A stretch of DNA of 64,000 bases, taken from NCBI GenBank assembly GCA_965203805.1, contig OZ241917.1:4736001-4800000 (forward strand), in the 5' to 3' direction. The position numbers and the translations under genes were made by a program. The stretch comes from Candidatus Latescibacterota bacterium. GTDB taxonomy: Bacteria; Latescibacterota; UBA2968; GCA-2709665. Below, piece by piece: positions 30,617-56,104 of this stretch (its first letter is position 1; each line of letters opens with the position of its first letter). The notes under the pieces are model-generated. The model did no database searches, was not told the origin of the DNA, and was given only the letters and a program-made list of their open reading frames with translations.

Positions 30617-31045
30617 TTAGAAAACGATAATTCCAGTACCGAAGTAACCCAATATCGTACCGATTGCAACGGCCACCCAAAAAATGGTTGAATTACGTAC
30701 CTGACGATATTCGATGTTGACGATGTCTGCATATTGCAGCGTAAACTCCGTTCCGCCATTTCCACGGGCATAGCCTTTGAAGGGGGTAACTGTGAACGAT
30801 GTCAGGCCGACCTCTTCGATTACACACTCTATAACCTGACCTTTGATCGGCGCACGGGAGCCCTCGCGGATTTCTATCCTTACGACCATACCCTCGGTAA
30901 GTTTGCTCAGAACCTGGTCTCGCATCGAAGCTTGTTTGCTAACCTCGGGGACCTCGTTCGCTCTCGTCAGGGGTCGCCAGGCGCTGCATCCAAACGTTTG
31001 CAGCGCAATCGCAAGAATCAGGACGATACTGATGGCGCGTAACAT
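30617..31045 (-). CDS. Paralogous lipoprotein L1
   Basis: MLRAISIVLILAIALQTFGC signal, shared ~75-aa beta domain, C-terminal hydrophobic helix. Confidence 0.85.
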   Translation of the reverse strand: MLRAISIVLILAIALQTFGCSAWRPLTRANEVPEVSKQASMRDQVLSKLTEGMVVRIEIREGSRAPIKGQVIECVIEEVGLTSFTVTPFKGYARGNGGTEFTLQYADIVNIEYRQVRNSTIFWVAVAIGTILGYFGTGIIVF

Positions 31046-31210
31046 TTGTCTGCCTCCTCATTATGTGACATCGTGACGGCAATGTTCGAGGCCGCACAAT
31101 CGGTTCGTCCAGGCGACGATGAGGAAACTCCGGAAGGCCGTTCATTCTGTGGTCCAAGTAGCGTTACGTGGACAGGACGGTACTTCAATTGTCCCGGGTA
31201 GGAAGTTCGG

Positions 31211-35238: not shown

Positions 35239-36207
35239 TCACAGATTCAGTGCAACGCTGAAGACATGTATCCTCTGGTCCGACATAGACCTGCTGAGAT
35301 CCCTGTTGGCATAATCCACCGAGATTCCGCGGCCGCCAGCCGTTCTGAATTCGAGCCCGCCGCCAAACACCATCGGAACCGAAGATTTCTGACCTCCCCG
35401 CAACGAGATCGCAAGTGAATTGCCTGTGCCGATCGTTGTAACGTGGGTATACTCCACGCCGACGTTCAGGCCGTTACTCGCATTCGGATAGAACGGACTG
35501 ACCACGTCGATGGCAAGGTCCACGTGGTGCGCGAAGGGCTCCAGGCCCAACGTCGAGACCAGATCGACGAGTACGCCGGCCCTGATCTGCTTCGGAACAG
35601 CTATGTTCTCGGGCTCGCTCAATGCTTCGAAGCTGAGGTTTCGGACTCCCAGTCCGAATACTGCATTGGCGGACTTTGTCGCAAAATATGCGCCAAGGTC
35701 GAAGGCAAAGGTACTGTGGATCTGGTCGCCGTAGTCCTCGCGCATCCACTTGAGTGCGGCGCCCAACGTGACGTGGTCGGCAATGCCCGTACCCCACGCG
35801 CCGGTTACGGCGTAGTCGGATCTGTCTGCCGTCCCGCTGCCTCCGATATTCGAAACGACAAATTCCTCGAAGGCGAATTCCTGGACGGAGAATCCAATGA
35901 CGCCCCGGTTCGGTAGCCTCGCGGCAAAGCCTGCTACGTGTTTTTTGGTACTGCTCGACCAATCCACGTATGTATAACTTGCGTCCATCCTCTTCACAAA
36001 GGCCAGCCCCGCCGGATTGTACATCATGGCTGCGGCGCTTCCGACGGATCCGACGCCGGTTGCTCCGAGCGCTTCGTCCCGTGCGTTGGTGGGTAGCAGC
36101 AGAAAGGTGAACCCCGTACGTCGTTCGGGGAAATCCTGGGAGAATCCTTCGCCAACCATAGGACCGGCGCATAGCACGCAGAGTCCAAACGCGATGAATC
36201 GCCACAT
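35239..36207 (-). CDS. PorV/PorQ-family outer-membrane beta-barrel
   Basis: Signal peptide, GFTFLLLPTNARDEALG, YNPAGLA, FAFDLG, GVEY, VDYA; amphipathic strands. Confidence 0.85.
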   Translation of the reverse strand: MWRFIAFGLCVLCAGPMVGEGFSQDFPERRTGFTFLLLPTNARDEALGATGVGSVGSAAAMMYNPAGLAFVKRMDASYTYVDWSSSTKKHVAGFAARLPNRGVIGFSVQEFAFEEFVVSNIGGSGTADRSDYAVTGAWGTGIADHVTLGAALKWMREDYGDQIHSTFAFDLGAYFATKSANAVFGLGVRNLSFEALSEPENIAVPKQIRAGVLVDLVSTLGLEPFAHHVDLAIDVVSPFYPNASNGLNVGVEYTHVTTIGTGNSLAISLRGGQKSSVPMVFGGGLEFRTAGGRGISVDYANRDLSRSMSDQRIHVFSVALNL

Positions 36208-36303: not shown

Positions 36304-37338
36304 TCACAGCTCAAAGGAAACGCTTACCAACTGCGTGCGGTCGTCTTTGATCGCCTCATTGATGAATACGCGAATATAAGGCTCGCCGCCCCCAACCCCC
36401 AGACCCCTGTTGGCGTAATCCACGGCGATCCGCCGTCCGCTCGCCGACCTGAATTCCAGCCCGCCTCCCCATCCGATGGGATTCGGTGACGCGTGCCCTC
36501 CTCGAATGGAAAAACCGAGTGTATGCCCGCCTGCACGTCGCATCAGATACGTATATTCGACTCCAGTGCGCAACGCGGTGTGCCCGAACGAACGGATGGG
36601 CTTGTAGTAGTCCATGGCGAGATCCAGGTAATGCGGAGACGGCTGCAGACCAAGGGTAGAGACCAGGTCGATGAGTACGCCGGCGCGGATACGCTTTGGT
36701 ACGACGTAGTCTTCCGGTTCGCCGAGGACACCGCCGGTTAAATTCCGCGCACCCAGTGCGATGATTGTACTGCCGGACTTCGACACGAAATACGCGCCCA
36801 GGTCGAAAGCGTAGACATTCTCATTCCTGTCCGAAAACGCCTCATGGATGAGCTTGAGGGCGGATCCAATCGCAAATTGATCGGCAATCTTCCAGCCGCA
36901 GGCGCCGGAAACAGAGTACTGGCTCACGTCTTCATTTTCGAATCCGTGATCGTAAGTCTGGACGGAAAGACCGAGAGACAAACTTCGGCCTGCATTCGCG
37001 GCAATCCCTGCGACGTAGTTCCTCTCATCCCAGTCAAGGTTCGCGGATCTGCGCTCCTCGGGGATCCAGACGCTGTCGGACTTTCGATTCGTGTTCGCTA
37101 ACGTGAAAACCGCATCCATTCCTTCTACGAAGGCGATGCCGGCCGGATTGTACATAATCGCCATGGCGGTTCCGACAGTACCCACACCGGTGGCGCCGAT
37201 CGCTTCGTCACGGGCGCTGAAGGGCTGCCACAGGAAGTTAAAACCCGTTTGCGGGGTAGGCGTCTCCTGGGCGAATACACTTTGTGTCAACGGCCCGGCG
37301 CAGAGCGCACATAGCATGATCTGAACACAGCCTCTCAT
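36304..37338 (-). CDS. PorV/PorQ-family outer-membrane beta-barrel
   Basis: GFNFLWQPFSARDEAIG, YNPAGIA, YAFDLG, GVEY, VDYA; paralog of its neighbour. Confidence 0.85.
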   Translation of the reverse strand: MRGCVQIMLCALCAGPLTQSVFAQETPTPQTGFNFLWQPFSARDEAIGATGVGTVGTAMAIMYNPAGIAFVEGMDAVFTLANTNRKSDSVWIPEERRSANLDWDERNYVAGIAANAGRSLSLGLSVQTYDHGFENEDVSQYSVSGACGWKIADQFAIGSALKLIHEAFSDRNENVYAFDLGAYFVSKSGSTIIALGARNLTGGVLGEPEDYVVPKRIRAGVLIDLVSTLGLQPSPHYLDLAMDYYKPIRSFGHTALRTGVEYTYLMRRAGGHTLGFSIRGGHASPNPIGWGGGLEFRSASGRRIAVDYANRGLGVGGGEPYIRVFINEAIKDDRTQLVSVSFEL

Positions 37339-37460: not shown

Positions 37461-38720
37461 CTACCTGCCGCCGAGTACCGTGCCAACGTTCAGCAGGAGT
37501 TCAACCTGGTTTGCCTGCTCGTATTCTTCCCCCAACCATCGGACGTACTGCACCTCGTACCTGAGAACGAGAGCATTACGGAAGACGTGGCGAGTGCCCA
37601 GGCCGATTCCGGCGCCGAATCGGGAGGCAATTATATCACCATCAAGAGTCGTGGCCAGAATCCGGCAATACGACGAACCCGAAGCCAGGCCCCTTGTGTA
37701 CAGGCCGAAACCGCCTTGTGCGACCCGTAAGTTCGCATTGCGACTGCCCGCTGTTGCCTGGTAAGTGAAGGCAATTCCAAAATCGAAGGAGATTCTCTCA
37801 GCAAAGAAGGAGGACATATAGAAGGTCGGCGTGATTCGAGCCATACCGCCCCCGCCATTGACCAACGTCACGGTATCATCGGATTGGCCCTTCAGGATTG
37901 AGACCGAAAGCAGGTTTGCACCGATTTCGCACCATGGTCTCTTCCTGGCTTCAAGTCCTGAGGCCAACCGGGCTTTCGGCCAGGCTTCGACGTCGCCGCG
38001 GTCTTCGGCGGCAACGATCACTTCGATATCGTCGAACGCGATCCGGAGGCTTCTGCGTCTGGCAAGTCCGCGCCGCCGGACGGGTGGCGTGTACTGGATC
38101 TCGAGACCGTCCGCTTCCAGGGAAGTAATCGCTCCGGTTGCGGCATCTTCCTTCCCTTCCGACGTGTAGACAACGTATACGTACATGCCTGCTTCGAGTC
38201 TCGATGGATCCAGGTCTTCGCGCCGCATCTCGATGACGCTCTGCGCGGCCTGAATTGCCCTCAGCCATCGTTCGAGCGTTCGCCGGTCCGGCGCTACGGC
38301 GAGTGATTCGATCGTTGCGTAGACGATATTCCGTTTGTCCCAGAGTTCGGACCTGACGACAATGCCCTCAGCGTCTTTGCCGATAATCTCACCGGTTGCG
38401 GTTTCCGCGACGCCTTCCGACGCGTAGACCACGTGCGCGTACCACCCCTCGACGAGCTTGGAGGTATCCAGTTCCGCTTGCGACATTACCAAAACGCCCA
38501 TCTCACGCGCCCACTGGCCGGCCGGTTGTCCCCCGCCGGCGACGATTGACGTTTCCTTTGGGTCTGTGCTGTCTTCTTCGGCGACCGCGGCGCCGGCAGA
38601 TTCGGGCGGCGCGCTGTCTGCGACCTGTATTTCGTCGGCCTGCTGTCCGGCATTAACATCGCTGGACCAGAAAACACCGGATACGATGCATACGATCAGA
38701 ACTGATGCGACGTGTTTCAT
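37461..38720 (-). CDS. Secreted repeat protein R1: two repeats plus a probable beta-barrel C-terminus
   Basis: Signal peptide, two VMS..ELD.SKL..G.YAHVVY repeats, ~155-aa alternating hydrophobic/Gly C-terminus. Confidence 0.8.
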   Translation of the reverse strand: MKHVASVLIVCIVSGVFWSSDVNAGQQADEIQVADSAPPESAGAAVAEEDSTDPKETSIVAGGGQPAGQWAREMGVLVMSQAELDTSKLVEGWYAHVVYASEGVAETATGEIIGKDAEGIVVRSELWDKRNIVYATIESLAVAPDRRTLERWLRAIQAAQSVIEMRREDLDPSRLEAGMYVYVVYTSEGKEDAATGAITSLEADGLEIQYTPPVRRRGLARRRSLRIAFDDIEVIVAAEDRGDVEAWPKARLASGLEARKRPWCEIGANLLSVSILKGQSDDTVTLVNGGGGMARITPTFYMSSFFAERISFDFGIAFTYQATAGSRNANLRVAQGGFGLYTRGLASGSSYCRILATTLDGDIIASRFGAGIGLGTRHVFRNALVLRYEVQYVRWLGEEYEQANQVELLLNVGTVLGGR

Positions 38721-38844: not shown

Positions 38845-40560
38845 TCAGAATTCAAGTGACACCGCGGCCTGCAGATCTCCGTTCCGCGTGGGTGCGATGC
38901 CCAGCTTGAGTCGTTGGGGGGATAATTCAACCCATCTTTCAGTTTCTATCGACGCGCCGATAAGCGTCGAACCGAGAATGACGGGACCATACAAGTATCC
39001 CAACCGCCGCATCAGGACAGGAATAATCTCAGAGTCGAAACCGCCACGCGCTGCGACAAACATTCGCGGAACAAGGTCGACAAAGCAGATAATCAGCCCG
39101 ATTTTCCTGCCCAGATCCGTATTCCTGAAACGTCCGGTGCTTACGGCGAATTTGTCAATAGAAGATAGAGGAATCCGGTCGATGCCACGTTCGGATACGA
39201 CAACCAGTTTGTCTCCGTTCACACCGGAGAACCTGCCGATGACACGCCGTCTCGAAATTGACCGTGTATTCAAACGCACTCTTGGTTGCTTTTCCTGAAC
39301 CCAACTCTTAATGTGCGCCAGTGATTGCCCCACGACCACCGTGTCTATGTCTCCCAATGCGATCTTACGCTTCTTCCGGAAACCGGACTTTATCAGGATA
39401 TGATCCGCTCCCTTTTCGACAATCTTTCCGGAGACGGCCTTGCCGATGCCGTCAGTTACATAGCGGACGTTCGCATACGTTCCCTCTTGCAACATTGTCG
39501 CATCCAGCTCACCTCGTCCCAGCACGGTCAAGGTCGTTTCGTAGAGTTGTACGACAGCCCGTCTCTTTTCCAGCCATTGCCTGATGTGGTCACGGTCCGA
39601 CCAGGTGACGATTGTCTCAATTTCGCCGCGGGAGATCCTCCAGTTCTCCCAGGGTTTCGGGACGGATTGGAGCCGGATTCGATCTGCTTTCCGGTCCACG
39701 ATCCTGCCGGACACGATTTTCCTGACGCCCTCTGAAGTATAGACGACGTGTGCATACAGTCCCTTCCTCAGTCTGTCGTATTCCAGGTCATTGCGTGAGA
39801 AATAGGATACGTCCGCCTGCCGGAGCTGTAGAATGTCCGTTCTCTCCCTTAACCAGGACTCCAGGGGATTCCGATCCCGGTAGCCGACGATCACGTCAAT
39901 GTCCCGATGCAGGATTTCCCATTTTTGCCACTCGTTTGAAACAGATCGGATCACGATGCGGTCGGGCTTTTTGTTCGCGACCTTACCGCTCACAATTGTC
40001 CTGGCGCCTTCCAATCTGTAGATGGCAAACGCAAAATGACCCTTCGTAAGTCTGGTCAGGTCGAGTCGTTCGGGTGCTATCAGGACGATATTGCCATCCG
40101 CCCAGTTCAGCCAACTCACGACAGCCCGCCGTTCCTCTGCGACAGCCACAAAGTCAAGTTCGCTGTACTTTATTCGCCGTCGCTCCATCGGTCTTTCCGT
40201 GGATTTCAGTACGATGCCATCCAGGTCCTTTACATGGATGACGCCGTTCGCGGTTCTCTTCACCCTTTTCGAGCCGTATTTCACGTGCGTATACCAACCC
40301 CTTATCAGCTTTGAGATATCCAGGTCGCCACGTGACATCAGCACGACGTCTTTCTCGTAGAACTGTCTGATCGCCCGTTCGACGATTTCTGCGGGGGTGT
40401 CGTCATCCGACGCCAGTTTTTCGCTTTTGTCGATAGCCGAATCCGCCCTAGCGGCGCGTTCTTCATTCCAGGCCTGAAGTCGGCCGGAGGCGTGGGCCAG
40501 ACCTGGCGCAATGAATTCACTCAGGAGACATGCGATCGGAACGAGTGCGGCAGGTTTCAT
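38845..40560 (-). CDS. Secreted repeat protein R2: four repeats plus conserved tail
   Basis: Four repeats, PRVRL domain, two hydrophobic helices, ends LGIAPTRNGDLQAAVSLEF. Confidence 0.85.
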   Translation of the reverse strand: MKPAALVPIACLLSEFIAPGLAHASGRLQAWNEERAARADSAIDKSEKLASDDDTPAEIVERAIRQFYEKDVVLMSRGDLDISKLIRGWYTHVKYGSKRVKRTANGVIHVKDLDGIVLKSTERPMERRRIKYSELDFVAVAEERRAVVSWLNWADGNIVLIAPERLDLTRLTKGHFAFAIYRLEGARTIVSGKVANKKPDRIVIRSVSNEWQKWEILHRDIDVIVGYRDRNPLESWLRERTDILQLRQADVSYFSRNDLEYDRLRKGLYAHVVYTSEGVRKIVSGRIVDRKADRIRLQSVPKPWENWRISRGEIETIVTWSDRDHIRQWLEKRRAVVQLYETTLTVLGRGELDATMLQEGTYANVRYVTDGIGKAVSGKIVEKGADHILIKSGFRKKRKIALGDIDTVVVGQSLAHIKSWVQEKQPRVRLNTRSISRRRVIGRFSGVNGDKLVVVSERGIDRIPLSSIDKFAVSTGRFRNTDLGRKIGLIICFVDLVPRMFVAARGGFDSEIIPVLMRRLGYLYGPVILGSTLIGASIETERWVELSPQRLKLGIAPTRNGDLQAAVSLEF

Positions 40561-45325: not shown

Positions 45326-46564
45326 CTAAAAATGAAACGACAGCGCAGCTCGAAGGCCCTTGTCTCGTGTCGGAGACACGCTCAGGTTGATTCGAGATGG
45401 GGAAACTTCGACCCATTGTTCGGTAACTGTCCTGGCACCTAACACAGCGCCACAGATGGTCGCGATAGGCACAGCCACCACAGCGAGCACGACTCGGTCA
45501 AAGCCTTCCCAGCCGTCAATTTCCTCATATCTGTAGTCGTCAAATACATCATGAGGATATATCAGAAATGCAGCGCCAAGTCCGACAAAAAACCCGATCC
45601 CCAGGCCCTTGATCGTGTTTCGATGGCGACCTATGTAAATTTCGAAATCGCGTATCGAAGAAATAGGTAACTCAAAAATCTCGTTTCCGGATAGGCCGAC
45701 GCCCATGACGAGCGTATCCTGATTCACGTCGAACAGCCTGCCAACCACGGAACCCGATCTTGACGCGCCCCTTCGGGTGGAAGGCGACTTTAATCGGATT
45801 CTGGGATTTTCCGGCAGATGTCGCAGGATCTGCCTCGCGTGTCGCAATGCGACGATGTCTCTCCGGTCTTCGGCGGCGACGATGAAGACAATGTCGTTCA
45901 ATGCAATCTCTCCACCGGCCCAGAATTGGTTCCTGCCTGCGAAACTGGACCTGATTACGAGATGCCGCTCGCGGGTATTCAGAATTCTGACCAGTTCGCC
46001 TCGTCTTCCATCTTCGAATTCATAGACAATGAATGCATGCCACCCCTTCCTCATCGCAGATAGGTCGATCGTCCCACGCGACATGACGACGAAACGACCA
46101 CCGACGCGTCTCCTCCACCGTTCCAGCGCCGGACGCTCTTTTGCGACGACAATCGTGTCAATTTCGGCATAGTGGATATGGGTTTTTTCCGGGACCGTCG
46201 CCGTGGATGTGATTTCCATACCAACGGGGTCAATGTTGCGAATGACGCCGGCTGCCGTGTCGGATGCGCCTTCAGACGTGTAGATTACGTGCGCGTAGAA
46301 GCCCTTCGCTATTTTCGATAGATCCAGGTGCCGCCTCGGCATCACCCAAACGTCCATTTCATAAAGCATTCTGATTAGCCTTGCGGCACTCTCCGCAGCG
46401 CGCTGTTCCTCCGACGGCTGCGGTTTCCACGTACTGCCGGCAGCTTTTCGCCAATTAACGCGCGTCGTCCTGTTGCCACGAAGTTCTTGCGCGGCAATCG
46501 ACAGGCTTGGCATCAGGATCTGAAACAGGAGTGTTGCAATCAATAATACGGCGGTTGGCTTCAT
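45326..46564 (-). CDS. Secreted repeat protein R6: two repeats plus conserved tail
   Basis: Ends WVEVSPSRINLSVSPTRDKGLRAALSFHF. Confidence 0.85.
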   Translation of the reverse strand: MKPTAVLLIATLLFQILMPSLSIAAQELRGNRTTRVNWRKAAGSTWKPQPSEEQRAAESAARLIRMLYEMDVWVMPRRHLDLSKIAKGFYAHVIYTSEGASDTAAGVIRNIDPVGMEITSTATVPEKTHIHYAEIDTIVVAKERPALERWRRRVGGRFVVMSRGTIDLSAMRKGWHAFIVYEFEDGRRGELVRILNTRERHLVIRSSFAGRNQFWAGGEIALNDIVFIVAAEDRRDIVALRHARQILRHLPENPRIRLKSPSTRRGASRSGSVVGRLFDVNQDTLVMGVGLSGNEIFELPISSIRDFEIYIGRHRNTIKGLGIGFFVGLGAAFLIYPHDVFDDYRYEEIDGWEGFDRVVLAVVAVPIATICGAVLGARTVTEQWVEVSPSRINLSVSPTRDKGLRAALSFHF

Positions 46565-46950
46565 GGATTCACCTCACTGAAATACTCTGCGTAATGTCTT
46601 CATTGAAGAAGGAAGAATGAAAAAGGAAGAATGAAGAATAAAACGCGGTTTTGTCGAGACGCAAGACGCTTGAGTTCTCTGTCGCTCCGTTGGTTTTGGA
46701 TTTCTCTCGCGTCTTGCGTCTCACGTCTGGACGCCTCTCGGGTTTTGTCTAACGTCTACCCTCTTCCGTCTCCCGTCTCACCGGTTTTATTGCCCCGTGC
46801 GGTTTCATTTCTTGCCGGAGGCATAAAGGAAGAACCAAACGTGCAAGGATGTCATCTCCCGTCTCCCCTCTCCCCGTTTCCAGCGTCTTGCCACCTGGGC
46901 TGAGGATCTACCGTCACAGTATACGAGACCCCTGGCGCACTGGCAGACGC

Positions 46951-48027
46951 CTAAAATTCGAATGACACCGCGGCTCGAAGGCCCTTGTCTCGTGTCGGAG
47001 ACACGCTCAGGTTGATTCGAGATGGGGAAACTTCGACCCATTTCTCGGTTTCTATCGCGGCCCCGATGAGCGTCCCGGCAAGTGTCGCTGCAGGTACGAT
47101 CAATAGCGCGGTGAGGCCGTCGATCATTTCTTCCGCTTGTTCTGATTCGTATCCACGTGCGTCGTCACGAACGTCTATCCAAATAGATGCAACCGCCCCC
47201 GAAACAAGCCCGATCACCAAGCCCTTTTTTGTGTTGGATTGACGTCCGAAGCTGACGTCGAATCTGTCAATCGAAGAAATCGGAATCATCGTGGAGCCCT
47301 CTGTGGAGAGCATCAACAGCGTATCGACTGTTGCCCGGATAATCCTGCCCTTGATCCATCCCTTCAAAATCGAAGGTGCCTTAATTCTAACTCTTGAATC
47401 CGGTTCCTCGAGTCTATGCATGGCCTTTTTTGCACGTCGCCACGTGTCTATCTCACGCCAGCTATCATAAACAGCGAGTATTTCAATGTCGCCGTACACA
47501 ATTTTCCACTTCTTCCACGGTGTCGCCGCGGATTGAACCACGAGATGATCCGGCTTGTTGGCCACAATCTTACCGCTGGAAATTTTCCGAACGCCTTCTG
47601 ACGTATAGACTACAGACACGTACGATCCTGGGGACAGCATCGAGCGATCAAGCTCCGAATGCGACATTTCCCGGATCGAACCCGCTGCTTCCATTTTCCG
47701 AATATAGGACTCGACCTCGATCATTCCTTGTGCGGGCGTAGTTGCCTTCTGGCTGATGATGAGCCAGGACACGTTGGCAAAGGCGATGGTGATTCGCCGG
47801 TCGCCGTCCCGAATGGAAAAGGACTCGGTTCCAATGGCGTCGATCCACCCCTTGGACGATCTCTCCTGGCGTTTGCCGTAGCGATAGGTGACGACAACGT
47901 ACGCGTCCAGCGCCAGGCTGTCGGGTCCAACGTCCGTGCCGCGAAGTCGCGTGGCGGCGTGCGCCAGGGCAGGGTCCATCGCGTTGAACGTCAGGACCGC
48001 GGCAAGAGTGAGTGCGGCTGTCTTCAT
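46951..48027 (-). CDS. Secreted repeat protein R7: one divergent and one typical repeat plus conserved tail
   Basis: N-terminus close to R8; 3' end shares a 70-bp identical tract with R6; ends AAVSFEF. Confidence 0.85.
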   Translation of the reverse strand: MKTAALTLAAVLTFNAMDPALAHAATRLRGTDVGPDSLALDAYVVVTYRYGKRQERSSKGWIDAIGTESFSIRDGDRRITIAFANVSWLIISQKATTPAQGMIEVESYIRKMEAAGSIREMSHSELDRSMLSPGSYVSVVYTSEGVRKISSGKIVANKPDHLVVQSAATPWKKWKIVYGDIEILAVYDSWREIDTWRRAKKAMHRLEEPDSRVRIKAPSILKGWIKGRIIRATVDTLLMLSTEGSTMIPISSIDRFDVSFGRQSNTKKGLVIGLVSGAVASIWIDVRDDARGYESEQAEEMIDGLTALLIVPAATLAGTLIGAAIETEKWVEVSPSRINLSVSPTRDKGLRAAVSFEF

Positions 48028-48090: not shown

Positions 48091-48559
48091 TCACCCCTGT
48101 TGCAACGGTGCCGGCGATTCCATCCGCTTGAGGCCGTCGTCATTCTCTTTCGTAGCGCCGAACCGTATCGTGCCGGACCCGAGCAGGAGCAGGAGCAACC
48201 CGAGCGGCATCCAGAAGATCATCCGGATCCGCCGGATAATGCCCACGGCCAGTCCGGTCCCCGGCTCCAGTCCCATTAAATGAAAGAGGAACACGTGCCC
48301 GCCTTCGAAGACCCCCATGCCGTAGGGAACGAAGCCGAAGATCACGTTGATCACCATCATCAGTGAGTGGAACAGATAAACCGAAACGAACGGCAGCGGC
48401 TCGCCCAGCACGTGTAGAATCACGTATATCTCGAGGGTGCCCAGGGCCCACGTCACCAGATGCATTCCCAGCAGGCCGGCCAGCCGCCACCCGTTCAGGC
48501 GGTAGAACGCGGCCAGATTCCGGTCGATCTCAGCGGCCCGGTCGCGGTACCGCTCCAGG
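48091..48559 (-). pseudogene. 3'-half duplicate of the flippase-like gene
   Basis: Matches 50600-51068 at offset 2509; lacks the N-terminal ~190 codons. Confidence 0.9.
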
Positions 48560-48715
48560 GTCGTCAGGGCCGTCTCCATATAAAGGTGGGCACCCGGTCC
48601 GCCCCGAAGTCCGGACCGGCAGTTCGTTCTGCTGATGCTCGGACGCGTGCAAGAGACCCGGCGCTAGGATCTCCAAAAGCAAAGCCGTGATTATTGTCAT
48701 TGAGGTGAGCTTCAT
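48560..48715 (-). pseudogene. 5' stub of a ninth R-family gene
   Basis: MKLTSMTIITALLL identical to the R5 start, continues EILAPGLLHAS, then joins the flippase fragment. Confidence 0.75.
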
Positions 48716-48761
48716 GTTTACGCCTCATTGAAACACTATACGTACTGTATCTCTTGATGCT

Positions 48762-49087: not shown

Positions 49088-50536
49088 CTAGAAATCTAAC
49101 GACAGCACGGCCCGAAAGCCATTGTCTCTTGTCGGAGACACGCTCAGATTGATCCGTGAAGGGGCGACATCGACCCATCTTTCGGTTTCAATCGCGGCCC
49201 CGATAAGCGTCCCGACAAGTGTCGCTGCAGGCACGCCGACCATTACGGAGTAGGCGCCGATGAGAGCTTCCTGACCGCGTTTATCAGCGTCTGTCGTGTC
49301 ACTGGGTCTATTATTCAATATCGCGACAGTGGCGCCCAATAGAAAACCGATTGCCATGCCTTTCTTTGTGTGTCGATGGCGGCCCATGCTGACTTCGAAA
49401 TCGTCGACGAAGGCACGACGGATCCTGACGCTCCCGTGTTGGGCCAGTACCTCCACCATGTCCCCGGTCTCACCCGCAAACCTGCCAATGATCCATTCAG
49501 TTGAGATCGAGGGCGCCTTTAGCCGTACCCTCGGTCCCTGTAGTTCACGCATCGCGTCTCTCGCTTTCCGCCAGCGTTTCATGTCGCTACGTTTGCGGGT
49601 CACGAGAACCCGTACGATATCGTCCGAACGGATTGTCCTTCGGTCGAAGCTGCCCGACTCGATCATCATGTGATTCGCATCCTTGCGTGCGATCACTCCC
49701 GTAACGGTGCGGCTGACGCCGGAAGATCGGTATTCTACGTGTGCATGCCATCCGAGGTTCAGGGATGCGAGGTCGAGTTCGTCACCGGACATCGCATGCA
49801 TCGCGGTCTTCTGAAGCTCCAGCATCTTCCGCCTTGCCGTTCGCCATTGCTCGATACCCCCCGGTTCATTCGAGACAGCGATGATTTCGATTTCTTTCCG
49901 TGCGATTTCCCATCCCTTCCCGGCGCCTGGCACAATGACGACGCGATGCGGGTCGAAGTCGACGATTCGGCCCGATGCCGCATTCTCCACACCGTTTGAA
50001 CGGAACACCACGTACGCATACAATCCAGGCGCGAGCCTTTTCAGATCAAGTTCCTTGTCGGTCATTACCTTAACTGACTTCGCATGGAGTCTCCGCAGGG
50101 CCTGCCGGTTACGCTGCCATGTGTCTATCTCACGCCAATTTGCTGCAACGGCAAGTGTCTCGATGTCCGCGTACATTATAGTCCGGCTCTCAAACGACCC
50201 TACAGATTGAACCACGATACGATCTGGCCTGGTGTCCACAATCTTCCCGCTGGCAATTTTCCGACTGCCTTCCGACCTGTAGACGACGTACGCGAACGAT
50301 CCCCGTGACAGCTTCGAGCGATCAAGCTCAGAACGCGACATTTCCATGACCGCAACTTCCTCTTCCTTGACTGCAACCGCAACGACCGTTTCCCGGGAAA
50401 AGGACTCGACCACGTTCATCCGGTGTCCGGAACCTCCGACGTCCGCGCTGCGAAGTCGCGTAGCGGCGCGCGCCAGGGCAGGGTCCATCGCGTTGAAAAG
50501 CAAGGTCGCGGTCAGGATGAGTGCGGCTGCCTTCAT
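49088..50536 (-). CDS. Secreted repeat protein R8: three repeats plus conserved tail
   Basis: Start MKAAALIL (GGGAGGG RBS); ends NLSVSPTRDNGFRAVLSLDF. Confidence 0.85.
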   Translation of the reverse strand: MKAAALILTATLLFNAMDPALARAATRLRSADVGGSGHRMNVVESFSRETVVAVAVKEEEVAVMEMSRSELDRSKLSRGSFAYVVYRSEGSRKIASGKIVDTRPDRIVVQSVGSFESRTIMYADIETLAVAANWREIDTWQRNRQALRRLHAKSVKVMTDKELDLKRLAPGLYAYVVFRSNGVENAASGRIVDFDPHRVVIVPGAGKGWEIARKEIEIIAVSNEPGGIEQWRTARRKMLELQKTAMHAMSGDELDLASLNLGWHAHVEYRSSGVSRTVTGVIARKDANHMMIESGSFDRRTIRSDDIVRVLVTRKRSDMKRWRKARDAMRELQGPRVRLKAPSISTEWIIGRFAGETGDMVEVLAQHGSVRIRRAFVDDFEVSMGRHRHTKKGMAIGFLLGATVAILNNRPSDTTDADKRGQEALIGAYSVMVGVPAATLVGTLIGAAIETERWVDVAPSRINLSVSPTRDNGFRAVLSLDF

Positions 50537-50599: not shown

Positions 50600-51634
50600 T
50601 CACCCCTGTTGCAGCCGCGCCGTCGTTTCCATCGGCTCGAGGCCGCCGTCTTTCTCCTTCGGCGCCCCGAACCGTATTGTGCCGGACCCGAGCAGGAGCA
50701 GGAGCAACCCGAGCAGCATCCAGAAGATCTTCCGGATCCGCCGGATTATGCCCACGGCCAGCCCGGTCCCCGGTTCCAGTCCCATTAAATGAAAGAGGAA
50801 CACGTGCCCGCCTTCGAAGACCCCCATGCCGTAGGGAACGAAGCCGAAGATCACGTTGATCACCATCATCAGTGAGTGGAACAGATAGACCGAAACGAAC
50901 GGCAGCGGCTCGCCCAGCACGTGTAGAATCACGTATATCTCGAGGGTGCCCAGGGCCCACGTCACCAGATGCATTCCCAGCAGGCCGGCCAGCCGCCACC
51001 CGTTCAGGCGGTAGAACGCGGCCAGATTCCGGTCGATCTCAGCGGCCCGGTCGCGGTACCGCTCCAGGAACGTGATCCTTAGCCGAAGCAGCAGGTTCAC
51101 AAGCCCGGTAAACGGATTGCGGCGCTGCCGGATCACCGTCAGAACGGCGCCAACGACGGCGATGGCCAGTGCGCCGAAGAGGGTCCACCGGATCTCATCG
51201 GGAAACACGAACCGATGAAGGCCTGCCAGAACGCCGACCATGACGAAAATGAGGCCGCTGATCATCTCGCCCGTTTTCGTGAGTACAAGCGACGACACGC
51301 CTGCGGTGACGCCCATGCGCTGCCGAAGCATCATCACTTTGGCGAATTCCTTGCCGATCTGTGACGCCGGCATGACGTTTCCGAGCGCCTCGCCAACGAG
51401 TTTCACCCAGAGTAGGGGTTTCAATGGGGGCTTTGCGATCCCGTCGTCGAAACTTCCCCGCCATGCGCAGACATTATTCACGTAGGCGGCCAGGGTGATT
51501 CCGATTATGGGGACATATCCCCATCCCATCATCACCACGTGCCGCCATACCTCCGGTTCGCCAAGCTGATGGAGCAGCACGCCGAGGCAGGCGAGGCCCA
51601 GCAGCCAGAGCAGTACATATACTTCCTGTTTCAT
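50600..51634 (-). CDS. Lysylphosphatidylglycerol-synthase TM-region (UPF0104, flippase-like) membrane protein
   Basis: About 8 hydrophobic helices; GEALGNVMPASQIGKEFAK, VPYGMGVFEGG, IIRRIR patterns. Confidence 0.82.
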   Translation of the reverse strand: MKQEVYVLLWLLGLACLGVLLHQLGEPEVWRHVVMMGWGYVPIIGITLAAYVNNVCAWRGSFDDGIAKPPLKPLLWVKLVGEALGNVMPASQIGKEFAKVMMLRQRMGVTAGVSSLVLTKTGEMISGLIFVMVGVLAGLHRFVFPDEIRWTLFGALAIAVVGAVLTVIRQRRNPFTGLVNLLLRLRITFLERYRDRAAEIDRNLAAFYRLNGWRLAGLLGMHLVTWALGTLEIYVILHVLGEPLPFVSVYLFHSLMMVINVIFGFVPYGMGVFEGGHVFLFHLMGLEPGTGLAVGIIRRIRKIFWMLLGLLLLLLGSGTIRFGAPKEKDGGLEPMETTARLQQG

Positions 51635-51659
51635 CACGCTCTCCTCAAATACGGTTTCG

Positions 51660-52307
51660 TTAGACGACAACCCTTTTGGCCGCGGTGATTACTGGAATTC
51701 CCCTGATCGCGCAGAGGGCGACGGTCAGGTAGGTCGCCGCGAGAGCGACCGTCTCGAACTCCGGTCCGAACCCGGACGCCACGTTAGACGGGTGTTGCAA
51801 CGCGTTCAGGATGAACAACGTCACGAATGCGATCACTTTCGCAACGCCGTACGCGGCCCTGCTCGCCCGTGAGGCGACCAGGGCGTGTCCGATGCGCGAC
51901 CGCATCATCGTCTGCTCTCCGAACGCGGTCTCGCCGTTCGACAGCGCGCAACTCCGAATCGCGTCCGTCACGAATCCCCGGCTGAGCACCACCAGGGGCA
52001 CCCAGAGGGGGATCAGATGCAGCCACGCGAACACCACCCACCACACGTTCTCCGCGATCCGGTCCCCCACGATGTCGAGCAATCCGCCGACCTTGCTCTC
52101 GCATCCCAGCCGCCGCGCGGCGTACCCGTCCAGCCAATCCATCAACAGCGTGGCGAACGCAAGGGGTACCGCAATCCAGGCCAGCACGGAGTCTCCCGTG
52201 ACCGCAAAGGCCGATGCCAGAAAAAGGCAGACGACCCTGAAGGCGGTAATCAGGTTGGCGACGTGACGCTGAAGGGTGGCTGCGAACGTCAATGTGTGTG
52301 CAGACAT
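51660..52307 (-). CDS. CDP-alcohol phosphatidyltransferase (PgsA-like)
   Basis: ANLITAFR and the signature DWLDGYAARRLGCESKVGGLLDIVGD; AAGGAGG RBS. Confidence 0.92.
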   Translation of the reverse strand: MSAHTLTFAATLQRHVANLITAFRVVCLFLASAFAVTGDSVLAWIAVPLAFATLLMDWLDGYAARRLGCESKVGGLLDIVGDRIAENVWWVVFAWLHLIPLWVPLVVLSRGFVTDAIRSCALSNGETAFGEQTMMRSRIGHALVASRASRAAYGVAKVIAFVTLFILNALQHPSNVASGFGPEFETVALAATYLTVALCAIRGIPVITAAKRVVV

Positions 52308-52337
52308 AACATCCTCCTTTCTTGCGGCACACATTGC

Positions 52338-52352
52338 GCAAACCCCGTGCCA
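52338..52352 (-). promoter_or_regulatory. Consensus sigma-54 promoter
   Basis: Minus strand TGGCACGGGGTTTGC, an exact TGGCACG-N4-TTGC, 30 bp upstream of the ATG. Confidence 0.88.
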
Positions 52353-52415
52353 TAACCGATTTCGCCCTTTATCAGGCGGATTCGACGGCAATTCGCACGG
52401 AAAACGTGTGACAGA

Positions 52416-52453
52416 TGCCAAAGGAAACTTGCACCTGCAAGCACGGGCTTGCA
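52416..52453. promoter_or_regulatory. Tandem upstream activator sites
   Basis: TGCCAAAGGAAACTTGCA and the palindrome TGCAAGC-ACGG-GCTTGCA, 20 bp apart and 65-100 bp upstream of the -24 box. Confidence 0.65.
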
Positions 52454-52474
52454 GGAATCCGGAGTGGACGGAAT

Positions 52475-52508
52475 AAAAAAAAACCGGCGACACAATGTGT
52501 GTCTCCGG
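52475..52508 (-). terminator. Intrinsic terminator after the response regulator
   Basis: Stem CCGGCGACACA/TGTGTCTCCGG followed by a 9-nt U tract on the minus strand. Confidence 0.7.
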
Positions 52509-52593
52509 ACTCAAGGGGGGGAAGGGGTCCCCGCTGGCGTCACCCGATGCGGTTATGGCCGTTTGCTTTTGGCTGACGGCTGAAGGCTGACAG

Positions 52594-53991
52594 CTATCTG
52601 TATATCTTCGGATCGATCCCGAGTTCCCTGACTTTCTGCTGCAGCGCCTGCCGTTTCATGCCAATGGCGGGGGCCGTGCGGCTCATATTGCCGTTGTGGC
52701 GTTCCAGCGCCGATCGAATGAAGGCGGCTTCAAAAGCCTGAACGACCTCCTGTTTTGTATCCTGAAACGACACTCCGTCCCGCCAGTTCGGTGCTCTTGA
52801 GGCGACGGATTCCGTACCGACCGAACGGACTTCCTCCGGAAGCAGGTCCCTGCTCAGGACCGTGTCCTCCGCGAAGATGACGGCACGCTCGACGGCGTGC
52901 ATCAACTCGCGAATATTGCCCGGCCATCCGTAGCCCGCCAGGAGTTTCGTCACATCGGCCGGCACTTCCGAAACAGCCTTTTCGTGCCTTCGATTGAATC
53001 GATCCAGATAATACTGTACAAGCAGGGGAATATCCTCACGGCGGTCACGAAGCGGCGGCAGGAAGACATCCACCACTTTCAACCGGTAATAGAGGTCCTC
53101 CCGGAACCGTCCACGCGCAATTTCACTCGGAAGGTCACGGTTCGTGGCGCTGATCATCCGAACGTCCACCGAAACCGTCTCCGAGCCGCCCAACCGCTCG
53201 AATTGCTGCTCCTGGAGTACGCGCAGCAGTTTCGCCTGGGTCTCGGCGTGCATGTCTCCAATCTCGTCCAGAAACAGGGTACCACTGTCCGCGAGTTCGA
53301 ACTTGCCCTGCCGCCTTGACGCGGCTCCCGTAAAGGCGCCCTTCTCATGGCCGAACAGTTCGCTTTCGATCAACTCGTTGGGAAGCGCCGCGGCGTTCAC
53401 CGCGACGAAAGGGTGTTCTTTTCGTACGCTCTGCTCGTGAATTGCCCGCGCCACGAGCTCCTTGCCGGTTCCGCTCTCACCGTGAACCAGCACGGCTGCG
53501 TCGGTTCCGGCCACCTTGCCAATCATGTCGCAGACCCGCTCCATGGTCCGGCTCCGGCCGATTAACAACCCGAATCCGGATTGCCGGCGAATCTCGTTGC
53601 GCAAGGACTCGTTCTCCCTCCGCAGCCGCACCGTTTCCAGGGCATTCTGGACCAGGCAGCGCAGTTCGTCCACGTCGTACGGCTTGCTCACGTAGTCGTA
53701 CGCCCCCGCCTTCATCGCCTCAACCGCAATCCTCTCCGAGCCGAAAGCGGTCATCATGATGACAGGAGGGGCGTCACCTTGTTCCCCCAGCAGCCTCACC
53801 AGCGTCAAGCCGTCCATTCTGGGCATCTGGATATCACAGATCAACAGATCGGGAACGCTGCGTGCGATCTCGTCCAGCGCCGCCTCTCCGTCGGCCGCTT
53901 CCACAATCTCGCCGGACAGCGCCGCCAGCGCCCGCTTCAGCCCATGCCGCGCGGCGGGATCGTCGTCTACAACCAGAATCTTATGCCGCAT
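52594..53991 (-). CDS. NtrC-family sigma-54 response regulator
   Basis: LVVDDD/CDIQMP receiver, [23 protein letters not shown]-terminal HTH. Confidence 0.95.
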   Translation of the reverse strand: MRHKILVVDDDPAARHGLKRALAALSGEIVEAADGEAALDEIARSVPDLLICDIQMPRMDGLTLVRLLGEQGDAPPVIMMTAFGSERIAVEAMKAGAYDYVSKPYDVDELRCLVQNALETVRLRRENESLRNEIRRQSGFGLLIGRSRTMERVCDMIGKVAGTDAAVLVHGESGTGKELVARAIHEQSVRKEHPFVAVNAAALPNELIESELFGHEKGAFTGAASRRQGKFELADSGTLFLDEIGDMHAETQAKLLRVLQEQQFERLGGSETVSVDVRMISATNRDLPSEIARGRFREDLYYRLKVVDVFLPPLRDRREDIPLLVQYYLDRFNRRHEKAVSEVPADVTKLLAGYGWPGNIRELMHAVERAVIFAEDTVLSRDLLPEEVRSVGTESVASRAPNWRDGVSFQDTKQEVVQAFEAAFIRSALERHNGNMSRTAPAIGMKRQALQQKVRELGIDPKIYR

Positions 53992-56104
53992 GGTCCCCTC
54001 CTGGAAGTTGCACTTCGAACACGACCCCTTCCGGGGTCTCGTTCGAAACCGCGATCGATCCGCCCATGCGCTCCACGTCCCGCTTTACAATGGCAAGTCC
54101 CAACCCGGTTCCCGAAGCCTTGGTCGTAAAGAACGGTTCGAAAACGTGCGGGAGGGCCTCCTCCGATATCCCCGGCCCGGTATCCGAAACCCGCACCGCC
54201 ACGCCCCCGCCCGAGGGTCCTGCCCGTACGGACAGACGCCGCTTTGCCGTCCGCTCCGCTTCTTCCATCGCCTGGATGCCGTTCAATATGAGGTTGAAGA
54301 ACACTTCCTTCAGGTCTTCGGGGTCCCCCTTGACGACCAGGCCCTCGCCAACTTCCGTCCGGATATCCACTTGTCGTCGTTCCGCCTCGTGCGACAGGAT
54401 CAACACCACGTCGTCCAGCACGGCCTTCATATCAACCGGATGAAAGGCATCGCACTGTTTCGGCTGCGCAAATCTGAGGAGCCGGTCCACCACGCGGCCC
54501 AAACGGTCGATTTCATTCAACACGACCGTCAGGTCGCCGGACTTCGCCGCGTCGTCTGCCAGTTCTTCCCGCAGCACGGTGGTAATCGCCTTGATGGAAC
54601 TCAACGGATTCTTGACCTCGTGCGCGATGCTGGCCGATAGCAGGCCCAGGGCCGAAAGCCGCTCCGCTTCGAACATGCGACGCTCCATCTGCATCCGGCG
54701 TTCCACCAGGCGCGTGTTCTCCACGGCCAGCGCAATCTGATTGCAGAGCGTACCGAGCAGGTCCCATTCCTCTGAAGAGTAGGGCACGCTTCGTTTTTTC
54801 TCTCCGAGGCACAGAAACCCGGTAAGCTTTTCCTCCTGCAACACCGGTATGCACAACCGGACGCTCTGTTCCGCCAGGACCCCTGCAAGACCCGGACGAT
54901 GCAATTCCCCCACGTCCAGTGCCCGCCGGTGGGTCAGCATCCAATCGGCCACCAGCCGGACCCGATCCTGACTCCGACCATTCCCGCTGAAGGGCGCGGC
55001 CGGTGGATCGAATCCCGGCAATCCACTGCCCGAGATCACCCGTACGTCATCCGCGCGGTCGTCCTCGTTTTCGAGCAGGACCAGCGAGACGAGGTGTACC
55101 TTGAGCACCGTTCCAACGGCGTCCACAACGGCTTTCAACCGGCTTTCCAGCGCGTCCGGCACGTTCAGCGTCTGGCTCAGCGTACCGAGCAGGTGCTGAT
55201 ATTCGAATCGCGCTTTGAAGAACAGTCGATTGATCGCGCCCTGCAGCTTATTCTTGACCGGTTGGAAGAGAAAGATCAACAGGGAGATCAGCACAGCCTC
55301 AACGACTTCCACCCGGAAGCCGCCGCCCAGGCGTCCGAGCTCTTCGGCGACGCGACGGATCACGAGCAGATAGACCGTGAGGACGATCCCCGTCAGCGCG
55401 GAATAGAGCAGCGCGGGATTCACCACGATCCTGAAAAAGCTGTATCGATAAATATAGTAACCGAGAATGTAGGCCGGCGCGATGGGTGAAAGAAACAGCG
55501 CGAGGTCCAGGGCCGGTCCGACAACTGCCAGTCTGATTCCCCCCATCGGATACGCGGCGCCGGCCAGAACCGCGATTCCGGTCAGCGCGAGCGCCGTCAG
55601 CCGGTAGAACGACCGTTGCACCTCCGTTGCCAACTGCGCGGCGAACTCCCGGCACAGCCACGCCGAATACAGAAGCGCCGGAATGGCGTACAGGCTGAAG
55701 CCAACGCGCTTCAGCGGTATGTCCCACAGACCTGTAAGGAATACGATCAGCCCGGGAACCACCGCGAACGGAACCGGATTGCGGCGCAGCCACCCGGCGA
55801 TTCGCGTGGTTTGTTCATCCGCCGAAATCAGCACCGTGGCCAGCAGCGCGGAAGGCAGAAAGCACATCCCGAATCGCGCGACCTGGGCCGCGTAGACCGC
55901 CGCGCGAGCGCCTGGGGACGCCTGTTCGATCAGAATCCGCAGCGCGTCTCCCGTATACCAGAACGCCCCTGCCAGAATCAGCAGCAGCAACGGAAGCGGC
56001 GTGCCCCTGCGCTTTATCGCGGAAACGAAAATGCCCCAGAGCAGCCCGGCGGCGACCGCGCCGCCGACCAGCCAGATCGTGTCATATAGTGAGAGGTCCA
56101 TCAT
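53981..56104 (-). CDS. Membrane sensor histidine kinase (multi-TM, GAF, HisKA, HATPase; PrsK-like architecture)
   Basis: About 9 N-terminal TM helices, GAF (LCIPV..EEKLTGFLCLG), AHEVKNPL, NGIQA, DTGPG, GTGLGL. Confidence 0.93.
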   Translation of the reverse strand: MMDLSLYDTIWLVGGAVAAGLLWGIFVSAIKRRGTPLPLLLLILAGAFWYTGDALRILIEQASPGARAAVYAAQVARFGMCFLPSALLATVLISADEQTTRIAGWLRRNPVPFAVVPGLIVFLTGLWDIPLKRVGFSLYAIPALLYSAWLCREFAAQLATEVQRSFYRLTALALTGIAVLAGAAYPMGGIRLAVVGPALDLALFLSPIAPAYILGYYIYRYSFFRIVVNPALLYSALTGIVLTVYLLVIRRVAEELGRLGGGFRVEVVEAVLISLLIFLFQPVKNKLQGAINRLFFKARFEYQHLLGTLSQTLNVPDALESRLKAVVDAVGTVLKVHLVSLVLLENEDDRADDVRVISGSGLPGFDPPAAPFSGNGRSQDRVRLVADWMLTHRRALDVGELHRPGLAGVLAEQSVRLCIPVLQEEKLTGFLCLGEKKRSVPYSSEEWDLLGTLCNQIALAVENTRLVERRMQMERRMFEAERLSALGLLSASIAHEVKNPLSSIKAITTVLREELADDAAKSGDLTVVLNEIDRLGRVVDRLLRFAQPKQCDAFHPVDMKAVLDDVVLILSHEAERRQVDIRTEVGEGLVVKGDPEDLKEVFFNLILNGIQAMEEAERTAKRRLSVRAGPSGGGVAVRVSDTGPGISEEALPHVFEPFFTTKASGTGLGLAIVKRDVERMGGSIAVSNETPEGVVFEVQLPGGDHAA

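Follow-up and report, generated by a model that had tools for sequence, protein, structure and literature searches.

We describe here a locus on the minus strand of a 64-kb stretch of a Candidatus Latescibacterota genome (assembly GCA_965203805.1, contig OZ241917.1, positions 4,736,001 to 4,800,000; hereafter the window, to whose positions all coordinates refer) that we read, with a probability of about 40%, as a two-component, sigma-54-dependent envelope-remodelling regulon, in which a phospholipid would be made and flipped and scaffolds resembling SlyB and YfgH would be installed. The core of the locus consists of a sensor histidine kinase, an NtrC-type activator, a palindrome with a sigma-54 promoter, a CDP-alcohol phosphatidyltransferase (CDPPT) and a flippase-like membrane protein (FLIP). 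Behind it lie eight genes for putatively secreted repeat proteins (R8 to R1), two for PorV-like outer-membrane barrels (PorVa and PorVb) and seven for small proteins with a conserved cysteine (L7 to L1). Judged by sequence comparison, the core is a real unit and not a chance order, because kinase, regulator, promoter and palindrome, CDPPT and FLIP recur in two genera of two families. The synthesis and flipping of a lipid and the scaffold role of the R proteins are proposed by analogy with better-known systems.

A conserved control region and core

Gene content was taken from the listing of open reading frames (ORFs) in the window and from Pfam and NCBIfam scans. Between 30617 and 56284 all 22 genes, and with them every sizeable ORF, are encoded by the minus strand, in the order that the initial annotation had read from the DNA. 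The genome, a single contig of 5.87 Mb that is 99.8% complete, contains rpoN and holds the R family, the C-terminal module of R and the L family at this locus only. The loci of relatives were compared by mapping the window's proteins with tblastn onto 40-kb stretches, the comparison sets being 41 genomes of the order and 101 of the phylum. Two genera recur below: g1, the window's own, and g6, which belongs to another family, both of Candidatus Latescibacterota.

The kinase gene (53981-56104) encodes GAF, HisKA and HATPase_c domains (Pfam) together with about nine hydrophobic, putatively transmembrane segments (hydropathy), and in each of the 19 relatives' loci spanning the kinase the alignment of its ortholog begins at the Met at 56104. 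The regulator gene (52594-53991) overlaps the kinase stop by 11 nt and encodes an NtrC-type sigma-54 activator and response regulator with Response_reg, Sigma54_activat, AAA_lid_14 and HTH_8 domains (Pfam); its best NCBIfam matches, AtoC, NtrC and PEP_resp_reg, each fall below their own cut-offs. Between this gene and CDPPT stand, in order, an intrinsic terminator (52480-52503; hairpin GACACACATTGTGTC, then a T-run), the same element being present 3' of the regulator gene in a g6 genome (G030), a predicted palindromic upstream activator site (52435-52454), the sigma-54 (-24/-12) promoter TGGCACGGGGTTTGC (52338-52352), an AGGAGG ribosome-binding site and the CDPPT start codon, ATG at 52307. The palindrome, a perfect CTGCAAGC-N4-GCTTGCAG, is the sole zero-mismatch match in the window, shuffled sequences averaging 0.28 matches at three or fewer mismatches. 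The promoter, 45 nt ahead of the CDPPT gene, is the sole exact match to TGGCAC-N5-TTGC in the 64 kb, and as a predicted site it has GG at -24, GC at -12, a gene for an enhancer-binding protein next to it and rpoN in the same genome. Motif and Pfam scans thus uphold the earlier reading of an exact sigma-54 promoter with an upstream palindrome, a terminator and a kinase/NtrC-type pair.

This predicted promoter is the strongest evidence for a conserved control circuit. It is exact 5' of CDPPT in 20 of 20 loci (ten of g1, the window included, and ten of g6) and again in three further loci, that is, in all 23 examined. Over both strands of 772,546 bp there are 33 exact sites, 20 of them at the position ahead of CDPPT, against a chance expectation, by our own arithmetic with base frequencies of 1/4, of about three in all. 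Some 100 bp ahead of the promoter, each of the 20 loci has a related inverted repeat that retains the outer bases TGCAA ... TTGCAG and departs from the window's palindrome at zero to five of its 16 specified bases. Where R or R/PorV genes stand between regulator and CDPPT (G029, G030 and L092), they have a second identical copy of the promoter in front, followed in G030 by a remnant of the CDPPT 5' end, and G016, a genome without the lipid block, has an R/PorV array whose first R gene is preceded, at 177 nt, by an exact sigma-54 site.

The genes of the core are conserved along with the promoter. In g1 the locus occupies one chromosomal site, between lactonase/SPOR/SLT genes on one side and genes for a leucine-rich repeat (LRR) protein, a PAS kinase and a second activator on the other, and all nine loci that cover this site carry kinase, regulator, CDPPT and FLIP with an R8-like gene next in line, at 81-92% identity for the enzymes and regulators and 52-78% for the R protein next to FLIP. 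Copy numbers at this one site vary widely between species: R from 1 to 8, PorV from 0 to 2 and L from 0 to 9, the L genes numbering nine in G011 and being absent from G007, G009, G010 and G014. The ten g6 loci all have the four core genes at 60-80% identity, contiguous in eight, amid flanking genes that differ from those of g1; seven of them have an R gene directly 3' of FLIP, which together with the nine of g1 makes 16 of 19. A FLIP ortholog with 61% identity or more is present in 13 of 14 g1 and 15 of 16 g6 genomes, and all 28 of these genomes also have R. Across the 41 genomes of the order, R occurs in 38 and L in 11. FLIP homologs of lower identity (30-51%) in other genera stand alone, without neighbouring block genes, and the block was not found in other genera of either family; the different surroundings and this absence from sister genera are compatible with lateral transfer or with selective retention. 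The linkage that the initial annotation suggested checking across genomes therefore holds in part: the kinase-regulator pair, the promoter, the lipid genes and at least one R gene are conserved in two families, but the PorV-like and L genes are accessory.

Between g1 and g6 the kinase, regulator and CDPPT are 69-79% identical, and for most ORFs beside the g6 loci the best match in the window's genome has 52-68% identity, with 82% for one. An ORF of about 460 aa adjoins the kinase gene upstream in eight of the ten g6 loci, and its best match in the window's genome (38-40%) is distant from the locus, at about 2.08 Mb. A second signalling pair is found past the LRR gene of the window, namely a receiver-PAS-HATPase hybrid kinase (26522-28639, minus strand) and a receiver-PAS sigma-54 activator (24051-26000, minus strand) with a one-mismatch sigma-54 site, TGGCACGAATTGTGC, directly 5' of its gene (26021-26035); this pair is kept as a flank in g1.

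The lipid genes and their operon

CDPPT (51660-52307, 215 aa) matches the CDP-alcohol phosphatidyltransferase family PF01066 at 61 bits (cut-off 22), and its translation retains the full catalytic motif D-x2-DG-x2-AR-x8-G-x3-D-x3-D intact. Its closest named models are pgsA and then ClsA, and sequence searching recovered a single relative of solved structure, S. aureus PgsA (7DRJ, E=8e-4). Of the 101 genomes searched across the phylum, only members of g1 and g6 yielded orthologs at 72% identity or more, and this restriction to two genera points to an accessory rather than a housekeeping enzyme. FLIP (50600-51670), whose gene overlaps the CDPPT stop, is a flippase-like membrane protein of the LPG_synthase_TM/HpnL-like kind (PF03706, 89 bits, cut-off 33) that scores 142 bits against the HpnL model TIGR03476 and does not reach its cut-off of 196. 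R8 (49088-50536) begins 63 nt after FLIP, and the gap contains a GGAGG ribosome-binding site but is free of a terminator. Ahead of the other R genes, by contrast, the spacers measure 124-509 nt, and this difference agrees with the earlier suggestion that R8 alone among the R genes is plausibly in the lipid operon.

The initial annotation had compared these genes with the PrsK/PrsR pair that accompanies PEP-CTERM proteins and with the PssA that serves ArtA, and sorting or lipid anchoring of one of these kinds would fit the CDP-alcohol transferase next to partial matches to PrsK (127 bits) and PrsR (405 bits). Neither analogy survives closer comparison. The PrsK match (TIGR02916) covers the GAF and kinase part only and lies below the cut-off of 300, the PrsR match (TIGR02915, cut-off 503) is outscored by AtoC and NtrC, CDPPT gives 21.8 bits against pssA with its cut-off of 107, the exosortase PF09721 was not found in the genome (99.8% complete, single contig), and R and L are without a motif-helix-basic-tail signal. 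Such sorting is largely refuted by these observations, and we regard it as highly improbable. A PEP-CTERM ending on the paralogs was considered separately and rejected, as R ends in a hairpin and a 34-residue tail with Phe and L in a plain helix, with no NCBIfam match for either.

The R proteins and a wider family

The eight R paralogs are 27-40% identical to R8 by alignment and, according to a hidden Markov model (HMM) of the repeat, have two to four modules of about 82 residues each. R8 consists of a signal peptide, three repeat modules and a C-terminal module (the C-module); repeat modules followed by a C-module also make up R7 (46951-48027), R6 (45326-46564), R5 (43831-45036), R4 (42426-43580), R3 (40776-42140) and R2 (38845-40560). 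R1 (37461-38720) has two repeat modules and then a distinct beta-rich domain of about 150 aa that ends in VLGGR, so that the description of eight secreted repeat proteins holds for the paralogs and their repeats, but not for a uniform C-terminus. Pfam and NCBIfam contain no family that matches R or L, and a sequence search of the PDB with an R1 profile found none.

In an AlphaFold2 model of R7 (57-row alignment, mean pLDDT 74), residues 25-92, 119-187 and 213-264 form small beta-barrels with helices between them, and a helical hairpin (266-290 and 296-324) leads into a strand and a low-confidence tail. In structural comparison the barrels match RimP-C, Hfq and LSm (Z 6-8; rmsd 2-3 Å across 55-75 residues), the hairpin matches ordinary membrane hairpins such as those of ATP synthase c subunits (Z 6-7), and a Foldseek search of the PDB with the model returned generic tandem Tudor/KOW proteins only (E ~1e-3, TM 0.1-0.25). 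As modelled, an R protein has two to four repeats, each an Sm/SH3-like beta-barrel, and then a C-module, in which a third small barrel leads into a glycine-zipper helical hairpin and a strongly conserved tail whose last residue is Phe. DUF5749 was tried as a family for the third barrel and rejected, its scores (14-21 bits) lying below the cut-off of 28.2. The most conserved part of R is the 34-residue tail (...KWVEVSPxRLNLSIAPTxxKGLRAALxFxF), with a mean frequency of the commonest residue of 0.82, and the least conserved is the loop of the hairpin (0.30), a pattern opposite to that expected of a structural core; within the hairpin, the GxxxG glycines are invariant.

The hairpin could place R in the cytoplasmic membrane, as an anchored periplasmic spacer, a binder of peptidoglycan or another polymer, or a partner of the kinase, with the tail returning to the periplasm. 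Its two hydrophobic helices of about 20-25 residues would suit a bilayer-spanning hairpin, its matches are to ordinary inner-membrane hairpins, and R8 shares its operon with two inner-membrane proteins. A basic GRxRNTxKG motif precedes the first helix on the exported side, however, and the loop between the helices is acidic, which as we read it runs against the positive-inside rule. A terminal Phe with an alternating hydrophobic pattern, as in the R tail, is typical of outer-membrane targeting. The R1 type moreover replaces the hairpin by a beta-rich domain, and R pairs with outer-membrane barrels. We therefore think an inner-membrane location of R unlikely, and prefer to read the hairpin as an outer-membrane anchor.

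The C-module reaches well beyond these paralogs. Out of 1.84 billion, a profile of the third barrel, hairpin and tail retrieves 5083 representative clusters with E<=0.001, of which 864 reach E<=1e-10, and by this measure the C-module defines a large unnamed family. Many of its members stand alone, with a signal peptide and a length of about 180 residues. The last residue is aromatic in 113 of the best 144 representatives, and among the 60 stand-alone members of 150-215 residues within this set, 58 have a glycine-zipper motif, 25 have at least two Cys in the loop region and 4 a lipobox-like motif. On the wider family, Pfam glycine-zipper models score 16-26 bits, below cut-offs of 24-29. Matches in the ESM Atlas are 'hypothetical protein' clusters only, from Acidobacteriota, Gemmatimonadota and Bacteroidota. 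Searches for related loci with narrower alignments returned only loci in genomes of the same order and one 3.5-kb metagenome contig, and the comparison of gene context covers loci within this order.

PorV-like barrels and L proteins

PorVa (36304-37338) and PorVb (35239-36207) encode outer-membrane barrels of the FadL-like PorV/PorQ family. PorVb scores 97.6 bits against NF033709, above the cut-off of 90, and PorVa 51 bits, below it; both align to the first two thirds of the model only, and their joint profile matches Flavobacterium PorV (6H3I, E=3.7e-8). Of 13 PorV_fam matches in the genome, 11 are full-length, with PorVa and PorVb the lowest of these, and the two that score lower still cover only 39 and 74 profile positions. 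Barrel genes and R genes tend to be neighbours: over all mapped loci, the nearest upstream same-strand homolog of 20 of 24 PorV-like genes is an R gene, R/PorV pairs in G016 and G030 are 38-50 nt apart or overlap, and an R1-type gene stands ahead of a PorV-like gene in G002, G008, G013, G026, G030 and G040. In g1, barrels are found only alongside an R1-type gene (G000, G002, G008 and G013). A predicted complex of PorVa (24-344) with R1 (66-419) scored 0.02, which weighs neither way. FadL-like barrels have been described as binding partner proteins, PorV its cargo and BamG the protein BamH (PMC12578637, PMC10994853).

Such pairs invite the view that R, and perhaps L, is brought to the cell surface with the aid of the PorV-like barrels and displayed for contact with a host, the arrays forming the variable surface of a marine-invertebrate symbiont. 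The genome encodes the type IX translocon SprA besides its 13 PorV-family matches, the pairs of R and PorV genes are tight, R varies most in its hairpin loop, a region that contains two or more Cys in 25 of the 60 stand-alone relatives, LRR genes are neighbours of the arrays, and near-identical DNA occurs in coral metagenome runs. All 13 matches in the genome to the type IX C-terminal domain (TIGR04183) nevertheless lie outside the locus, and the R tail is unlike that domain; with R and L both lacking it, the initial annotation's analogy with PorV and its type IX cargo does not carry over. PorV-like genes are also missing from most g1 loci that keep R, and the barrels of the locus are the lowest of the full-length PorV_fam matches, one of them below the cut-off. 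Surface display seems to us rather improbable, slightly more so than an inner-membrane R.

An LRR protein with a lipobox-like N-terminus (FIGC) is encoded after the L array (28711-29943, minus strand), and likewise in G002, G008, G011 and G013. In g6 arrays (G030, G040 and locus L084), LRR-like genes have exact sigma-54 sites of their own 82-328 nt upstream, and the LRR genes may belong to the same regulon.

The L paralogs, 31-49% identical by alignment, are encoded by L7 (34710-35141), L6 (34094-34546), L5 (33477-33929), L4 (32871-33308), L3 (31911-32348; GTG start and its own ribosome-binding site), L2 (31211-31690) and L1 (30617-31045). Each begins with a hydrophobic segment that contains a conserved Cys, continues with a single Sm/SH3-like barrel and ends in a transmembrane helix. 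The model of L6 (mean pLDDT 75) shows an N-terminal hydrophobic helix, the conserved Cys, one helix, a small barrel and the C-terminal transmembrane helix, and a Foldseek search with it gave nothing at E<=0.001, the rows returned being Hfq/LSm/SH3-like only. They had been called seven lipoproteins; the seven paralogs and their conserved Cys stand, but the 'lipobox' ALQTVGC is, as we read it, marginal against the consensus. A common origin of L and R finds no support, since a profile-profile comparison gave a probability of 7% and the R repeat HMM matches no L; the likeness that can be shown is thus one of architecture only. Just past the last L gene, at 30333-30362, lies a perfect palindrome with a 13-bp stem, AGGCAGGCAGACA-TTCC-TGTCTGCCTGCCT, which may be a bidirectional terminator closing the array.

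Duplication and possible accretion in the arrays

The spacers between the R genes are homologous, which indicates that the array grew by duplication of cassettes of gene plus spacer. A duplication scar lies between R8 and R7 (48091-48740): one part of it (48623-48715) is what is left of an R5-like N-terminus, and the other (48091-48579), a 3' fragment of FLIP, is a 162-aa ORF that is 92% identical to FLIP residues 199-356 (the last 158). The direct repeat D8 (spacing 2509 nt, 87% identity) corresponds to a duplicated unit of 2.5 kb. An N-terminal remnant of a PorV-like gene is fused in frame upstream of L3 (32514-32609), 16 of 25 residues being identical to PorVb 9-33 (pairwise E=3e-9).

The main rival to a regulated envelope system is accretion at a recombination hotspot, by which the lipid operon and the R, PorV-like and L families would be functionally separate and the arrays would pile up by duplication and insertion. 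We hold this to be a serious alternative, though one clearly less probable than the regulon. The wide variation in copy number at one site, the remnants of FLIP, R and PorV, the CDPPT 5' remnant where an array was inserted in G030, an IS481-type transposase in the G016 array, the R arrays that occur without the block and the presence of other variable genes (LRR) in the same arrays are all what accretion would leave behind. It does not readily explain why all 28 block-bearing relatives have R, or why R directly follows FLIP in 16 of 19 loci of two families with different flanks. The promoter, too, is duplicated ahead of inserted R arrays in three genomes, the unrelated R array of G016 has a sigma-54 site as well, and FLIP and R8 are separated by 63 nt without a terminator.

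Several features of the surroundings may be recorded here. The transposase of the G016 array (rve + HTH) lies at L041 8078-9214, inside the R/PorV genes. Purine-rich repeats (GAAGGAAGAATGAAAAAGGAAGAATGAAGAA...) occur in the spacers 5' of R3, R4 and R6 (42184-42246, 43617-43715 and 46600-46662); two RNA libraries otherwise without the locus yield 37-nt contigs, at depths of 4429 and 1836, that match 46604-46639 and probably come from an unrelated low-complexity source. Upstream of the kinase, a 277-aa ORF (56499-57332, minus strand) joins the N-terminal part of an ABC ATPase to the C-terminal end of an ABC-2 permease; these two parts are about 1.7 kb apart in G009, G010, G012 and G014, so that the ORF of the window seems internally deleted, a pseudogene.

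A possible envelope-remodelling regulon

If the locus is a regulon of the kind proposed, an envelope signal would cause the activator to switch on phospholipid synthesis at the inner face of the cytoplasmic membrane. The head group of the product may be of the phosphatidylglycerol or cardiolipin kind, because of the weak likeness of CDPPT to PgsA and ClsA, and FLIP would carry the lipid to the periplasmic leaflet. R would be exported by its signal peptide and anchored by the glycine-zipper hairpin, probably in the outer membrane, its tail ending in Phe serving for insertion or for contacts between subunits and its two to four Sm/SH3-like modules extending into the periplasm. There it could act like SlyB and YfgH of E. 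coli, as a scaffold that holds lipid and beta-barrel proteins together, and in many genomes each R would be paired with a PorV/FadL-like barrel of its own. The L proteins would be single-barrel, single-helix relatives in architecture, and tandem duplication and unequal crossing-over would keep shifting the copy numbers of R, PorV-like and L genes. According to a recent preprint, SlyB and YfgH are glycine-zipper proteins of the outer membrane that keep lipid nanodomains and outer-membrane proteins stable, and YfgH is tied genetically to the cardiolipin synthase gene clsA (10.64898/2025.12.22.696046); Francke et al. 2011 (PMC3162934) argue that sigma-54 controls the cell exterior generally.

Assembled contigs from one RNA library with a coral metagenome label give a weak hint of expression. 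They are near-identical to the kinase, regulator, CDPPT, FLIP and R8 (0-3 differences in 235-653 nt). Two RNA runs (X6 and X7) contain next to nothing of the stretch. Runs labelled as coral metagenomes also contain DNA near-identical to the window.

A number of findings weigh against the proposed regulon. As to expression, the library of the RNA contigs may contain DNA, the contigs, being assembled, show neither strand, level nor a joint transcript, and none covers 52308-52974. As to control, no sigma-54 site with up to one mismatch stands ahead of R1-R7, the PorV-like genes or the L genes in the window, and two single R genes elsewhere in g6 genomes (loci L080 and L087) are without an exact site within 7 kb upstream; scans of the arrays for sigma-70 promoters and terminators gave results at shuffle level. 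As to the enzyme, CDPPT falls below every curated cut-off (pgsA 57 against 109 bits, ClsA 38 against 240, PIP synthase 23 against 170, besides the pssA score given above). As to R, none of the Pfam glycine-zipper models tested (PF05433, PF13488 and PF13441) reaches its cut-off, the C-module of R7 scoring 12.8 bits against YMGG (cut-off 28.9); by a pattern check the R proteins, unlike SlyB and YfgH, have no lipobox, their N-termini ending in Ala-x-Ala-type sites without Cys; the C-module profile matches no solved structure in the PDB by sequence; and the modelled hairpin would fit the outer or the cytoplasmic membrane alike. As to composition, PorV-like genes are missing from six of the nine g1 loci and present in three, and nine of the 41 genomes have R matches without a block ortholog, among them G016 with 13 matches. 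With L in 11 of 41 genomes, the PorV-like and L genes cannot be counted as constant parts, and the R array of G016 without a lipid block contradicts a strict tie between R arrays and lipid genes.

A bolder form of the proposal would take the R proteins as founding examples of a large and so far unrecognised class of glycine-zipper envelope proteins that are not lipoproteins, some 5000 clusters from Acidobacteriota, Gemmatimonadota, Latescibacterota and Bacteroidota, with a small barrel, a hairpin and a beta-tail ending in Phe. Such proteins would form rings around cognate FadL/PorV-like barrels and, with a dedicated and regulated phospholipid, make up programmable outer-membrane nanodomains, whose loops and module numbers would be diversified by cassette duplication in host-associated bacteria. 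As a whole this is doubtful, though a shade less so than surface display or an inner-membrane R.

The initial annotation recognised no named system of this composition, and this stands, as neither Pfam and NCBIfam nor the literature searched gave a description of one or of the R and L families. If true, the envelope-remodelling regulon would add a sigma-54-controlled, lipid-linked scaffold module to the few ways known in diderms of stabilising the outer membrane under stress (SlyB, YfgH), from a phylum without a cultured model, and would give a first handle on a very large unnamed family of small envelope proteins. With promoter, palindrome and regulator at hand, the circuit is directly testable in a heterologous host, and the two enzymes by lipidomics. 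That R, PorV-like, L and LRR genes turn over so fast at a single site, in bacteria whose genomes come from marine-invertebrate samples, may bear on how such symbionts tune their surface.

Comparison with known systems

The regulatory genes recall PrsK/PrsR in combining a multi-transmembrane GAF kinase with an NtrC-type sigma-54 activator and with families of secreted paralogs nearby. They differ in scoring below the equivalog cut-offs, in the absence of an exosortase from the genome and of a PEP-CTERM signal from the paralogs, and in that the sigma-54 site fronts the lipid operon and not each paralog.

The barrels are comparable to PorV and PorQ of type IX secretion and to the FadL-like BamG of the Bacteroidota BAM complex, since PorVb passes PorV_fam and the joint profile matches 6H3I. 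Their low rank among the 11 full-length matches of the genome, their alignment to the first two thirds of the model only and their neighbours without a type IX C-terminal domain set them apart from PorV and PorQ.

Both lipid genes have familiar counterparts. FLIP belongs to the same family as the MprF flippase domain and HpnL, by its PF03706 and TIGR03476 scores, but it has no lysyl-PG synthase domain, lies below the HpnL cut-off and has no adjacent hopanoid genes, and relatives hold a second, unlinked FLIP paralog at 43-51% identity. CDPPT is like PgsA and ClsA in its intact catalytic motif, with pgsA as the best named model and 7DRJ as the sole solved relative, but it differs from them in its sub-threshold scores and in having orthologs in two genera only among 101 genomes.

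The comparison with SlyB and YfgH of E. coli is the one on which the proposed scaffold role of R is modelled. The R proteins, as described here from sequence and models, differ from them in having a plain signal peptide, no lipobox and glycine-zipper scores below the cut-offs; in a periplasmic part that is predicted to be two to four Sm/SH3-like repeats and another small barrel instead of the SlyB domain; and in a 34-residue tail ending in Phe, paralog arrays and sigma-54 control. They are like SlyB and YfgH in the two-helix glycine-zipper hairpin joined to a periplasmic beta domain and in the role proposed for them, that of stabilising lipid patches and outer-membrane proteins when the envelope is stressed; and the tie between YfgH and clsA would have its counterpart here in a phospholipid synthase gene within the operon of R itself.

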